Shown in pieces: positions 15,137 through 27,758 of a stretch of DNA of 64,000 nucleotides. The position numbers were made by a program, and so were the translations under genes. Position 1 is the first letter of the stretch. Every line of letters begins with the position of its first letter. This stretch comes from Orbicella franksi (taxonomy: Eukaryota), in the NCBI GenBank assembly GCA_964199315.1, contig OZ116706.1, positions 30,380,001 through 30,444,000 on the forward strand, written 5' to 3'. The notes below the pieces were generated by a model. That model was not told the DNA's origin. It saw nothing but the letters and a program-made list of their open reading frames with translations, and searched no databases.

Positions 15137-18100
15137 ATGAAGCTGTGTTGGGGATATCTTTTCGTTCTTTGGCTGTTGTTGGGAATATGCTCAGGTCAAA
15201 TATGTACTGTCTGATAATTTGTGATAATTGTTTTTTTACATTTAACTTGACGAGCGCCTGACAATTTTTAAATGCTTAAACGGCAATTTTGTTTTTACTT
15301 TTAGGCAGTGTAATCAATCGAAAAGCAAGAGACTCTGAAGATGACTTGAACAAGAGAGAAGGATTAAGAAAACAACTCGATGATTTAACGGAAGCAGTCA
15401 AAAAACTTCAGGAAGAAATTGAGAATGATGGTAAGCATCAGTTTGTTGTACTGAGTGCTTTCTTTTCACAAGCTTTTTATCTATGGCTGGCCAAGGTACA
15501 CTTGGGTGTTTGGAGGATTATTCTACTGCACCGCGTTGGGTGACCTTGAAGTGTGTGATTCAGTCAGTTTTTCATTTTTACTTTCCATTGATCTTTGGCG
15601 ATTGAGATGGATCATTCTGACATGAACTGGTTAATTCGTAAATATTTGTAATCCAAAAGGATCAGTTGCTGCGAGGCACACTTAACAGTTCAAAAGTTGT
15701 AAATAGTAATAATGTGGTGCCAAATAAGAAACGATGGTTATAAGAGACGTTTCGCGGCCTAGCCCTTCCTCAGTGCTAAGTTTTGAATGGGACACGGGAA
15801 TGGGGCGTGTCCCATTCAAAACTTAGCACTGAGGAAGGGCTGGGCTCAAAACGTCTGCTATAAACATCGTTTTTAATTTGGCACTTAATTCATTAATTCA
15901 TAGATTATTTCTAGTTAGTCGAGCACTTAGTTTGGGATTGCCAAATTACAGTTTCTGTCTCTTTCAGTTCATACACTTATTAGTCATATCAAATTATGAA
16001 TAAACCAAATGTTATTTGTATTTTTCAGACAAACGTGACTATGAGCGAAGAAGTTCTTTCAAACGCAGGGTCACTCTAGATGAAAGTACTAAAGAACAGG
16101 GTGACAAACGCAATTCCAGCATGGATAGGGTATTTTTTTGTTTATTGAATGCAATTTCACCACCTACGAAAGGACAATTCTAATAAGAAACTACCCAAGC
16201 AATCAATCAACCGACTCTAACCGAGTTGCTGAGTTCTCGAAAGATTATGAAAATATTTGTCGTCAGATTGTATTCCTGTTTTGCCGATTACTGTCCGTAA
16301 CATGGAGAGAGTCGCTTTTTTTCCGCTAAGACTTTCCAAAAGAAGTAAATTTCTTATATGTAATTCAGTAAATTTATAGTTTAAAGGATCTGCTGACCTT
16401 GGAGAAAAAATACTCGAAGCCGGTGTCAAATTGTTAACTCGTGAGTTGGAGAGTAGAGGAAAAAACAAGGAAGAGAAAAAGGAGTCTGACACTAGCACCA
16501 AGGTAATGTCACAAATTTTAATTAAGTCATAGTACAGTGAAGGCAAGACATCAGTTTGTTCATTGGGATATGTCAGACTGTTTAGAAACTTGTTCCGTAA
16601 CAAGATAACCGAAAGAAGCTAGAAAGTTATCACAAATCCTTTTCAGTTTAATGACTAAGCCACACAGTCAGTGATACGACCAAACTTGGGGGCTCTGTTG
16701 GTTGCCTGCATGGTGTGCAACGATTTTTTGACAGCGAGTGAGTTCATTTTTTTGCGAGTCTGAAGAAAACCTCAAAGCTAGCTAAAGCCGTGTTATTCTA
16801 CGACCGGGCTAAATACACCTCCTTGCTGCACAGGGCAAATTAATGTCGAAGGAGTGTTGGAGCCAACTGAGTCTCTACTTAGAAATTTAAACTTTTATAA
16901 TCTGTCTGGTTGTCGTTTATTCGCCAGATTATTGTTGTTATTATTATCTTTATTTAGGAATTCTTGTGCTTTTTTTATCACAGGAAAGCGCCAAAGGTAA
17001 ACTAAGAAAACGAGTCAACCCTGCAGCAGCACAAATGGGTGCCAAAGCTGGTGAAAAGGCCGTGGAAATGGGCGCTAAAGTGGCTGAAAAACAAATGGAA
17101 ATCAACGAGAAACAGAGAGGAAAAACTGATCAATTTCTCGGTGAAGAGGTACGTCAAAATGGTAATTCAAAAGTTATGATCTGCCCAGACTTGAACAGAG
17201 GGGACATGAAGGCAATTGTGATGCGATCTTTTATAGGGATGTTACTAAAACTGGTAACGGGGAACGGGAGTCTGGGAACGAGTGTACAGCGGTAATCCGC
17301 GTAAACATTCAGCATGACAGAAAAGAAAAGGGAACAATTTGGGGAAATGTGAGGAAGTGTTACGGTTGTAGACGTGAGTTTCTACCGGCTGTGCCACCAG
17401 ATCATGGCCCAGTACGTTCTTGTTAGAGAAGAGTCCGATTGGTACTGGGATAAACAAAGCATGAAATGGCGCCTGGGGTGAAAATCGAATCGGTATTATC
17501 TTGTATTATCACAAGCTACGTTCGCCAATCGGTCAGGCCACAGTCTTTCTTACATAGAATTTCAAGCCTTCATAGTCTACTCATATCTTCTCACTTTGTG
17601 CGCGAGCTGTCATATCAATATTTCAAAATAGCAACACGCAATATGATATCGAGGACAAGTGACATAAAACATGAGCATCAATGAACGTGGGTCGTCCGCT
17701 GTTTTCGCATTCGGAAGCTAGAAAGGCGGCCTTTCGGAGATCGGCAAGTCAGCTGGCAAATCAGGTGAGCAGCAGATAAATAACCTGTGGCCTCGCCGCT
17801 TTGTTAAAGACAAAATATATGAAGAAACGACCAACAAATATTCCACAATAATGCTAATGCTGGTGCAAGATGACCGCGGAAAAGCGACTGCGTGACACTC
17901 GGTATGTTTTTAGATGACATGTTGTCACGTATCAGACGGAAAACAGTCTTTATTCTCTGTCTGCGTTTTGTACCCGGTCTGCAGTCTGCATTTTGTACTG
18001 ACCGATTGGGGTAGCATGTGATAATACCGATTCGATTCTCTCCCCAGGCGCTATTTCATGCTTTGTTTTTCTCAGTACCATATTAGAGTTTGAGGCACAG

Positions 18101-27100: not shown

Positions 27101-27758
27101 GTACAAATATCCAAGGGCCTCTATTCCCTTAAATTACTGGTGCCACCCTTTGCGCTCCTAACTGTCATCGTTTTCGTCATCGTCAAAGTCATGATCGTTA
27201 TTGTTATTGTCGTCGTCGTCATTACGGTAATAATTATGCTTACTGGTTAACATCTTGTTTTCGTTGCGTGAAGGCACATTAACTCAACGTTATTCGCTCT
27301 CACTTTTTTATAACGTATTTTTCCTTTCCAAACTTTCAGACAACTGCCCCGATGGCTGGAAGGAGTTTGAAGGCTTCTGCTACAAATTTGAGTTGGATAA
27401 GAAAACGTCCTTTACAAACGCCGTGGCCACTTGTCGCGAGATGAAAGCGGAACTCCTCGTGGTAAACTCGATGGAAGAGAATCGATTCATAGAGGGACAG
27501 ATAGCTTCTGACAACTACGTGTGGCTAGGAATGGTTCTACACCGTGGTCTAGACGCCAGCTGGCAATTGTTAAATGGCGAGGAACCTACCTTTAACTTGA
27601 TAGATGATTACAGGAATAGATACTCGCCGTACTCGCCGTACAGGTCACGCGGTGAAAAGTATTGTGCGCTTTTGATCCGTAAACGCGGTTGGTATGGACT
27701 GGAGTGTGAAGATGGGACGAACGGAGTAGCCGTGTGTAAGCGCCCGTTTTCTGGGTAA
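15137..27758 (+). CDS. Secreted multidomain MACPF pore-forming protein (~1265 aa): signal peptide, pro-region, unknown domain, MACPF, Methyltransf_FA-like domain, furin-like repeat, EGF, EGF, C-type lectin
   Basis: Phase-consistent GT-AG exons 15137-15194, 15305-15430, 16029-16129, 16380-16503, 16958-17148 (acceptor uncertain), 18600-18839, 19076-19129, 19465-19577, 19962-20192, 20858-20970, 21042-21649, 22376-23062, 23558-23918, 24641-24778, 25406-25516, 26382-26504, 27340-27758; total 3798 nt, open to TAA. Signal peptide MKLCWGYLFVLWLLLGICSG. Confidence 0.8.
15717..15884. ncRNA. 168-bp hairpin made of two inverted minimal type I hammerhead ribozyme relics (Penelope-like element type)
   Basis: Perfect 35-bp stem 15762-15796/15806-15840. 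Plus copy TAGCA-CTGAGGA-A-GGGC-tgg-GCTC-AAAAC-GTC-TGCTA; minus copy CTGAGGA-A-GGGC-tag-GCCGC-GAAAC-GTC. Confidence 0.65.
17236..18372. mobile_element. 1137-bp foldback-type element with long imperfect TIRs and a 7-bp TSD (TTTTATA)
   Basis: GGGATGTTACTAAAA...TTTTAGTAACATCCC; inverted homology 17236-17520 vs ~18010-18372; TTTTATA at 17229-17235 and 18373-18379. Confidence 0.8.
18228..18352 (-). repeat. 7-bp microsatellite (GGGAAAC/GGGGAAC)n, about 17 units, in the right arm of the foldback element
   Basis: Directly visible; source of the spurious TGNGERG/TGNGKRE ORFs. Confidence 0.95.
19465..21649 (+). CDS. MACPF domain exons of the secreted protein
   Basis: N-terminal IPGATFIGVGFDGRG; signature FGTHYIKAGRFGG matches Y/W/F-G-T/S-H-F/Y-x6-G-G; Gly/Ser-rich TMH-like segments SGASGSGFGFYAGVKNAWGSS and MEFEFKSFFASAGAR; terminal helix LKRAIDVYMEE. 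Confidence 0.9.
20220..20470 (-). mobile_element. Degenerate SINE copy, same family as 12589, reverse orientation
   Basis: gtaaagtctg...ggcgcttatc...gtagggcttcccccagtattta...gggcttgtaccc...gaccatcgcagcgcc aligns to the reverse complement of the 12589 copy. Confidence 0.6.
20480..20790 (-). mobile_element. 3' fragment of a CR1/L2-like LINE
   Basis: Minus frame reads SNAGSFSYWNESLNENRTVTDLNTFRKVILSCY, like the ORF2 C-terminal WNSL...LNTFK motif; AT-rich tail follows. Confidence 0.45.
22376..23918 (+). CDS. Post-MACPF exons including a probable Methyltransf_FA (PF12248)-like beta-sandwich
   Basis: LHFTASTKGTVFVIFS...WYYVQISPYG...YQPYFVCV...IIEYGK...DKEKPLLHVRFYAFGNG follows the strand pattern of that family as I recall it; no HMM run. 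Confidence 0.5.
23225..23460 (+). mobile_element. Highly degenerate SINE copy
   Basis: gtgttcttgagtaagagactt, ccaggaggagaagcaacacgcctagccgcttcatgcta and tatgagccagttggg match the 12589 family. Confidence 0.55.
23970..24310 (+). mobile_element. Penelope-like element terminal fragment with a decayed hammerhead core
   Basis: GGACT-aTGAAGA-TGAC...GTA-GAGGC-GTC-AGTCA at 24180-24224 keeps stem I and the GUC site but has core mutations; the flanks match a common coral Penelope repeat as I recall it. Confidence 0.6.
24641..26504 (+). CDS. Furin-like Cys-rich repeat exon (24641-24778) and two EGF exons (25406-25516, 26382-26504)
   Basis: CHEMCDPLKGC...DCNAC...GECVKTCPEGF...C; CQKNPCMNGGTC...CQCTEEYRGHHC; CDSNPCKNDGKC...CSCPPGLGGATC; all phase 1-1. 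Confidence 0.9.
26610..27055. mobile_element. Probable MITE between the second EGF exon and the lectin exon
   Basis: Imperfect inverted ends cattgtgtacatttttcctcatta / taatgaggaaaatatattataaacaa. Confidence 0.4.
27340..27758 (+). CDS. Terminal C-type lectin-like domain exon
   Basis: CPDGWKEFEGFCYKF, A...C.EMKAELLVVNSMEENRFI, VWLGM, C...C...VC pattern; lacks EPN/QPD and WND. Confidence 0.9.

Follow-up and report, generated by a model that had tools for sequence, protein, structure and literature searches.

A coral MACPF gene with a C-type lectin-like tail, apparently one member of an unnamed family with a conserved core and exchangeable tails

Corals, like most invertebrates, are not known to possess a canonical membrane attack complex, and it is an open question by what means they kill the microbes they recognise. 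A gene of the reef coral Orbicella franksi asks whether recognition and pore formation could be carried by one polypeptide. It lies at 15137..27758 on the plus strand of a 64,000-nucleotide stretch (GCA_964199315.1, contig OZ116706.1, positions 30,380,001 to 30,444,000), here called the window, whose numbering is used throughout. A sequence-only reading of this DNA had proposed a single chain running from a MACPF domain to a C-type lectin domain and had not recognised the architecture as one already described. The chain stands, but the architecture is not singular: the same domain order occurs in two Montipora RefSeq proteins, and lancelet models such as P0112 also run from MACPF to EGF and Lectin_C. 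The gene is apparently one member of an unnamed MACPF subfamily in which a conserved chassis carries an exchangeable tail. The family, rather than the single gene, is the finding, and the gene is less special than was first held.

Transcript support and family membership

From an ATG at 15137 to a stop ending at 27758 the gene has GT..AG introns, consistent phases and no internal stop in any exon. Placement of exon ends gave 17 candidate coding exons summing to 1256 aa. One of these (19076-19129, 18 codons, phase-compatible) was dropped, as it is skipped by the RNA contigs and missing from the Montipora protein described below. The supported model has 16 coding exons, 3717 coding bases and about 1238 aa; the 1265-aa model first proposed was not reproduced. 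Among 24 RNA runs listed, X1, X2, X21 and X23 were compared with 18450-28600, and X2, X4, X5 and X6 with the 5′ region 14300-18200. Contigs of the poly(A) run X2 contain ten GT..AG joints leading from exon 18600-18839 through to the lectin exon (18839>19465, 19577>19962, 20192>20858, 20970>21042, 21649>22376, 23062>23558, 23918>24641, 24778>25406, 25516>26382 and 26504>27340), all matching the model, and a single joint in the 5′ part (16129>16380). The check by RNA that had been suggested for exon joining was thus answered for 11 of the 15 introns; ten of these joints connect the MACPF exons with the lectin exon, and all come from the single run X2. The remaining four introns (exons 1-2, 2-3, 4-5 and 5-6) are without a joint and rest on splice signals and on being collinear with the Montipora protein. 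All pieces from run X1 were unspliced. Joints in the 3′ part come from one of its four runs, and runs X4, X5 and X6 gave no joint in the 5′ part. The MACPF-to-lectin linkage is pieced from several contigs, no single one covering both ends: one of 1593 nt takes in the MACPF exons and enters exon 22376, one of 426 nt spans the joint 23062>23558, and one of 1034 nt leads from 23630 in exon 12, the last core exon, through the furin-like repeat (FU) and both EGF exons to 27712 in the lectin exon. Splice signals and RNA joints bear out the phase-consistent exon chain, and the contigs, together with the same chain in the two Montipora proteins, bear out the single polypeptide.

The best database match is a Montipora capricornis protein (P0001, XP_068718689.1; 1239 aa) with MACPF, EGF, EGF and Lectin_C domains; M. 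foliosa P0077 (XP_068704058.1; 1241 aa) has the same domain order. Both are uncharacterised and of nearly the same length as our model. Exon-by-exon alignment shows that P0001 holds the same exons in the same order. Identity to P0001 is 39-68% in the signal and propeptide exons, 69/80 in exon 6, 36/37, 73/76, 30/37 and 164/202 in the MACPF exons, 188/229 and 103/119 in the core exons, 33/44 in FU, 25/36 and 19/39 in the EGF exons and 46/128 in the lectin domain. Between these corals the tail has changed far more rapidly than the part that would form the pore: the lectin domain is only 36% identical and differs in its long loop, against 81-97% for the MACPF exons. Montipora belongs to the complex clade of corals and Orbicella to the robust clade; since both hold the same exon order, the architecture, judged from these sequences, is older than the split between the clades.

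Searching with the core of P0001 retrieved 73 proteins from stony corals, anemones, a soft coral, lancelets, Lingula, a chiton and Owenia. Further searches added acorn worm and Macrostomum, and a wider search gave 102 clusters at E<=1e-30. The family thus includes brachiopod, chiton, annelid and flatworm members and is expanded in lancelets. Precomputed Pfam lists of the 73 proteins show a recognisable tail in 54: F5/8 in 23, pentraxin/LamG in 16, C-type in 5, SRCR in 5, hevein in 4, kringle in 4, and SUEL, fibrinogen, D8C and ephrin-receptor-like in one each, some proteins carrying two. A tail of lectin-type fold (pentraxin/LamG, F5/8, C-type, hevein, SUEL or fibrinogen) is present in 46/73. 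The sequence-only reading had allowed that the architecture might already be common and characterised; it is common in databases and uncharacterised. Beyond the family, the MACPFs next in similarity belong to a rotifer (P0165), the protist Colponema (P0230) and a Verrucomicrobiales metagenome bin (P0241), with E 7e-38 to 1e-24, mainly across the MACPF part.

The O. franksi genome itself gave 12 matches representing 11 family loci with four tail types. Seven tails are pentraxin/LamG-type (five by Pfam, two by tblastn only), one is EGF + SUEL, one F5/8 + EGF + fn2 and one the C-type tail described here; one further locus is without an assigned tail. The tail of one paralogue (L046 + L051, G000:C2:31.12-31.14 Mb) is built from three EGF-like exons plus four or more SUEL lectin exons, some with Gly-Lys repeats behind them, and an Orbicella faveolata protein shares 99.5% identity with this paralogue's MACPF exon. 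Another locus (L042, G000:C14:3078392-3088391) has rearranged core exons, an incomplete FU and no tail within 10 kb, and may be a truncated copy. As had been read from the sequence, FU and the two EGF exons each begin and end in phase 1, the phase in which the lectin exon also starts. Across the family loci with a complete FU, the first donor past the repeat is in phase 1 in 9/9 tested, and different modules then follow. The count covers 9 of the 11 loci (one having an incomplete FU); the donors are predicted save at this gene, and the introns are homologous rather than independent. Phase-1 exon shuffling of the tail, as first suggested, is supported by this pattern.

A core-only FastTree of 76 rows has tail type changing at least 16 times among the 58 labelled rows; the tree is unrooted, so the direction of tail gains cannot be read from it, and the count has no shuffled baseline. 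A single origin of the C-type tails was tried and rejected. In approximately unbiased (AU) tests on 27/76 rows (LG+G4 quick tree, groups named after viewing the FastTree), placing the four C-type rows in one clade was rejected at p 1.7e-5, as was pairing the coral and acorn worm C-type rows at p 1.5e-5. The nearest relatives of the coral C-type gene bear pentraxin, SUEL, F5/8 or D8C tails. No close paralogue of the lectin exon that might be a recent donor was found in the genome, the best other match among 70 being 42% over 81 aa. A search for shorter proteins yielded numerous coral fragments the size of single exons (78-97%); the 120 of 159 matches listed include none that carries a Pfam C-type domain. 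The amphioxus immune-repertoire work is said to report an expansion of MACPF genes, and part of the family may thus already be noted. A literature search turned up no paper describing the family among the titles listed, though some of the architectures may be covered by the amphioxus immune-repertoire paper of Huang et al. 2008 and the MACPF-superfamily paper of Moreno-Hagelsieb et al. 2017; PMC13608440, PMC6626399 and PMC8605247 were also consulted.

Exons and predicted structure

The coding exons, all on the plus strand, are as follows.

Exon 1, 15137..15194: start codon and predicted signal peptide (19 hydrophobic codons, 1 charged residue); aligns to the P0001 N-terminus.
Exon 2, 15305..15430: charged N-terminal segment, likely propeptide, phase 1-1; from sequence and the P0001 alignment.
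Exon 3, 16029..16129: likely propeptide with four dibasic sites; RNA joint to exon 4.
Exon 4, 16380..16502: likely propeptide; RNA joint 16129>16380.
Exon 5, 16984..17148: KR at 17008-17013 (predicted maturation cut), then a predicted long helix.
Exon 6, 18600..18839: conserved N-terminal core ahead of MACPF; RNA joint to 19465.
Exon 7, 19465..19577: start of the MACPF fold, 36/37 identical to P0001; RNA joints.
Exon 8, 19962..20192: MACPF including TMH1, 73/76 identical to P0001; RNA joints.
Exon 9, 20858..20970: MACPF; RNA joints.
Exon 10, 21042..21649: MACPF signature (21059-21097), TMH2 and end of the MACPF fold; Pfam PF01823; RNA joints.
Exon 11, 22376..23062: family-specific insert of ~130 aa (roughly 22469-22855) and first strands of the ConA-like sandwich; RNA joints.
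Exon 12, 23558..23918: completes the ConA/galectin-like beta-sandwich and begins the Cys-rich stalk; RNA joints.
Exon 13, 24641..24778: furin-like Cys-rich repeat (weak match), phase 1-1; its donor is the point beyond which family members differ.
Exon 14, 25406..25516: EGF domain 1, phase 1-1; RNA joints.
Exon 15, 26382..26504: EGF domain 2, phase 1-1; RNA joints.
Exon 16, 27340..27758: C-type lectin-like domain without EPN/QPD or WND, and stop; RNA joint 26504>27340.

The chain is predicted to be secreted through its signal peptide, and we infer that the propeptide is cleaved at the KR site in exon 5. A KR or RR at the corresponding distance is found in 19/23 testable cnidarian relatives (8/31 being too short), and in a wider window in 27/61 relatives from all taxa. 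The Pfam scan took in 15 of the 17 candidate exons. It placed PF01823 at 21044-21649 with 58.9 bits against a cut-off of 21.5 (E 1e-15). The MACPF signature Y/F-G-T/S-H-F/Y-x6-GG is intact, as had been claimed, and is kept in 73/76 aligned relatives. The fold was taken from an AlphaFold model of an anemone relative, P0005 (76-row alignment; mean predicted local confidence, pLDDT, 69), not from the whole coral protein. Residues 276-631 of this model match Mpf2Ba1 with Z 21.9 and a root-mean-square deviation (rmsd) of 3.2 over 279 aligned residues; Z is 21.4 for GNIP1Aa and 20.9 for perforin (rmsd about 3-4). The bent four-stranded sheet and the two helical clusters, the transmembrane hairpins TMH1 and TMH2, are present in the model, and a helix at 176-197 corresponds to exon 5. 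A full MACPF fold is therefore predicted. The hairpins may be amphipathic: in TMH2 the alternating hydrophobic columns are conserved, the observed moment being reached by 39 and 29 of 5000 shuffles for segments picked after viewing the profile, whereas TMH1 falls short of significance in the same test (below).

The domains named by the sequence-only reading were confirmed in outline, with ~350 aa of core between MACPF and FU overlooked. In the P0005 model residues 632-958 resemble CBM66 (Z 14.5, rmsd 2.6, 136 aligned) as well as galectin-8 (Z 13.1), and a ConA/galectin-like sandwich interrupted by an insert of ~130 aa is predicted for this part. Methyltransf_FA (FAMeT, PF12248) was suggested on the core by an Atlas feature score of 0.82, a lead only; neither core exon nor any of 10 whole relatives gave a Pfam match to it. 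The insert was folded from exon 22376-23062, with pLDDT 85-97 over residues 31-160. It had no Foldseek match at E<=0.001, a best Z of 5.0 (to small beta-barrels) against 48,161 chains, and a best Atlas score of 0.86, to unnamed phage clusters. It thus appears to be a confidently predicted domain without a clear solved relative; these searches leave a new fold unproven. Since a shared fold shows no function, sugar binding by the ConA-like sandwich is only a possibility.

In the stalk the two EGF domains stand (E 5.4e-10 and 1.1e-7), whereas the furin-like repeat is weak (E 0.002) and below the cut-off. The C-type domain was confirmed as Lectin_C (E 8.3e-13), and 105 PDB sequences match it at E<=0.001. 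Alignment with C-type domains of the family shows four invariant cysteines and WLG, an EPN loop replaced by a Tyr/Arg-rich stretch, and WYG in place of WND. The Montipora orthologue is likewise without EPN/QPD and WND, while the acorn worm relative P0008 has both EPN and WND. EPN/QPD and WND are the canonical calcium-sugar motifs of C-type lectins (calcium site 2). Because they are replaced here, classical calcium-dependent sugar binding by the tail is unlikely on sequence grounds, and the proposed glycan targeting through this domain becomes doubtful. Lacking that site, the tail more likely recognises a protein, or some surface feature independent of calcium, than a mannose or galactose glycan of the classical kind. 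The RNA differences listed for the lectin exon comprise 0 synonymous and 2 non-synonymous changes, a tally too small to read.

Around the gene, the window holds an ordinary neighbour downstream, a large multi-exon furry gene at about 33000-63600 (+) (Fry_C, E 3.8e-37 at 60623-61312; MOR2-PAG1_mid, E 1.4e-8 at 54326-54748). On the minus strand at 9014-9268 an open frame points away from the MACPF gene; it begins much like a signal peptide, includes an acidic segment, has no Pfam match and resembles the first exon of a secreted precursor. A high-copy element whose arms are inverted lies in intron 5 (17150-18400), as does a tandem tract of short period, and other high-copy repeats lie near 15.6-15.9, 24.0-24.3, 26.0-26.3 and 26.6-26.9 kb.

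A candidate self-targeting pore former and its rivals

We favour, with a probability of about 0.5, a secreted innate-immune pore former that targets itself through its tail. The protein would be secreted by its signal peptide and activated by cleavage of the charged propeptide at KR. The FU-EGF-EGF stalk would hold out the tail, which would attach to the surface of a microbe or to another foreign surface. The MACPF domains would then oligomerise, and TMH1 and TMH2 would unfurl into a beta-barrel pore as in other MACPFs. Tail modules such as pentraxin, F5/8 and C-type domains are typical of pattern-recognition proteins. Targeting by the tail and lysis are inferred from this layout, and an immune role is preferred to venom on two grounds: the family thrives among animals that have no stinging cells, and its tails are of pattern-recognition type. 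Published work gives context: MAC/perforin domains are enriched among dispensable lancelet genes, alongside immune domains (PMC12373286), and an immune cell type of Stylophora expresses a Perforin/MACPF (PMC8162421); the family is not named in the former nor stated in the latter, and PMC6109156 and PMC5073156, which lend further context, do not name it either.

Several observations weigh against this reading. The poly(A) raw-read runs X21 and X23 (12% and 25% read) had zero exon depth, so expression is patchy or low. A Pfam tail is absent from 19/73 relatives, some of them partial models, and the tail may be dispensable. The fold was taken from a relative that is 48% identical to the Montipora orthologue, and in TMH1 the alternation is non-significant (319 and 971 of 5000 shuffles, again for segments picked after viewing the profile). 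Strong conservation of the core between distant corals would suit a housekeeping or developmental role equally. The literature search found no record of activity, localisation or induction for any family member, and developmental or non-lytic MACPF roles are described, including in Nematostella (PMC11090067, in part).

These last points lead to a less probable though serious rival, in which the protein is a non-lytic or mildly lytic extracellular component for development, adhesion or matrix, its tail binding a self ligand, much as in astrotactin, Torso-like or the endomesodermal Nematostella MACs. The conserved core and the Nematostella precedent fit it, and a C-type domain without a sugar site next to EGF repeats would suit protein binding. 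Set against this, the signature and TMH2 amphipathy are kept across the family, and lineage-specific expansions with such tail turnover would be more typical of defence genes. We consider it unlikely that the protein serves as a venom or anti-predator toxin kept in nematocysts, gland cells or eggs, as a one-chain counterpart of perivitellin-2 (PV2), the AB toxin of snails. Its signal peptide and charged propeptide ending in KR follow the usual layout of cnidarian toxin precursors, and the dibasic site is kept in most testable cnidarian relatives, but KR sites are common in many secreted proproteins and ~135 kDa is large for a nematocyst toxin. The family also occurs in animals without stinging cells, from which it follows that its ancestral role cannot have been nematocyst venom, and it is remote from the Tx-60-like genes of the same genome (below). 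Toxicity of a MACPF delivered by a coupled lectin-type module has been shown for PV2 (bioRxiv 2019.12.23.880021, extract), which lends the toxin hypothesis a precedent.

Doubtful, and rated lower again, is a pore former for feeding or symbiont control, secreted to gut or mucus and lysing prey cells or culling algal symbionts. Many carriers are suspension or deposit feeders, and tails of the chitin-binding and galactose types would fit the surfaces of prey or algae. A secreted MACPF, albeit C6-like, is the most abundant gut membrane protein of Ciona (PMC6109156). The mechanism overlaps the immune reading, however, and sequence does not separate the two. That the lectin exon lies outside the main product, through two genes or a short isoform ending after FU, is largely refuted and very improbable. 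The sequence does offer a candidate terminal exon in the intron after FU (24979-25040, +; in-frame phase-1 acceptor, 20 codons and stop), which if used would give a tail-less isoform, and the joints come from one run only. RNA depth in its bin is zero in 4/4 runs, an RNA contig joins exon 12 through FU and the EGF exons to the lectin exon, and the two Montipora RefSeq proteins have the same chain.

Returning to the self-targeting pore former, a wider extension is put forward tentatively: that the family is a modular killing system as old as the cnidarian-bilaterian split, in which one chassis (MACPF, new insert domain, ConA-like sandwich and Cys-rich stalk) with a phase-1 exon socket has repeatedly taken at least 10 kinds of recognition module. 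If true, invertebrates would have a repertoire of self-targeting lytic effectors with recognition and killing on one chain, doing the job of the lectin pathway and membrane attack complex without a cascade. The family, whose 11 loci in this reef coral's genome bear four types of tail, is a candidate for recogniser and pore combined. The paralogues with different tails form a natural series that would be expected to bind and lyse different targets.

Comparison with known MACPF systems

The sequence-only reading had compared the gene with the sea anemone toxins PsTX-60A/B and AvTX-60A, which proved misleading. The genome has 28 MACPF matches in total, and the Tx-60-like genes (L026, L027, L031, L033-L036, L039, L040) form a separate single-exon group of ~420-500 aa, a label based on size and on a visual comparison with two published Acropora rows rather than on an alignment with the toxin. 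The MACPF exon of the present gene is 21-25% identical to this group (E 6e-4 or worse), and a profile of the post-MACPF core had no match in 12 other MACPF frames of the single-exon group. A tandem pair (L017, L018) we take, by eye, to be MPEG1-like; another group of four (L013-L016) is without an assigned identity. In the extract of PMC11090067 (Surm et al. 2024), the MAC family found with toxin queries is a signal peptide plus one MACPF of about 500 aa, and section 3.1 of a coral venom study (PMC12745922) uses the same queries. PsTX-60A/B, AvTX-60A and their coral homologues are secreted cnidarian MACPFs, as here, but the present protein has ~1238 aa, 16 exons and five further domains. Neither PF00059 nor PF13385 occurs in the supplements of PMC12745922, of which 2 of 73 rows were viewed. 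As far as these portions go, both surveys appear to miss the family.

PV2 of Pomacea, compared by description only and from an extract, couples its MACPF to a lectin in two disulfide-joined chains, with a beta-propeller tachylectin and an IMAD accessory domain. Here there is one chain, the lectin-like domain being spliced into the same transcript, with a ConA-like core and a C-type fold without sugar motifs. The best structural matches of the MACPF part are Mpf2Ba1, GNIP1Aa, perforin and MPEG1 (Z 19-22, 13-20% identity); of the 60 PDB sequence matches listed, GNIP1Aa alone is a MACPF (E 2.7e-4). Like the present protein these join a pore domain and a C-terminal binding domain on one chain, but their accessory domains differ and there is no exchangeable tail. 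MPEG1/perforin-2 is defined by a P2 domain and a C-terminal transmembrane anchor (PMC7424014, in part); the coral chain instead has a soluble C-type end and, as modelled, a ConA-like region after MACPF. C6-like proteins have TSP1 and LDLa ahead of MACPF and EGF directly after it (PMC11312191, in part), and no TSP1 or LDLa match was found in the 15 exons scanned or in P0001. Apextrin (MACPF + ApeC) and Ci-MACPF1 (TSR + MACPF + EGF) are also single-chain invertebrate MACPFs, and have been linked to immunity. They have different accessory domains, and each has one fixed architecture, whereas the family described here has a common core with many tails.

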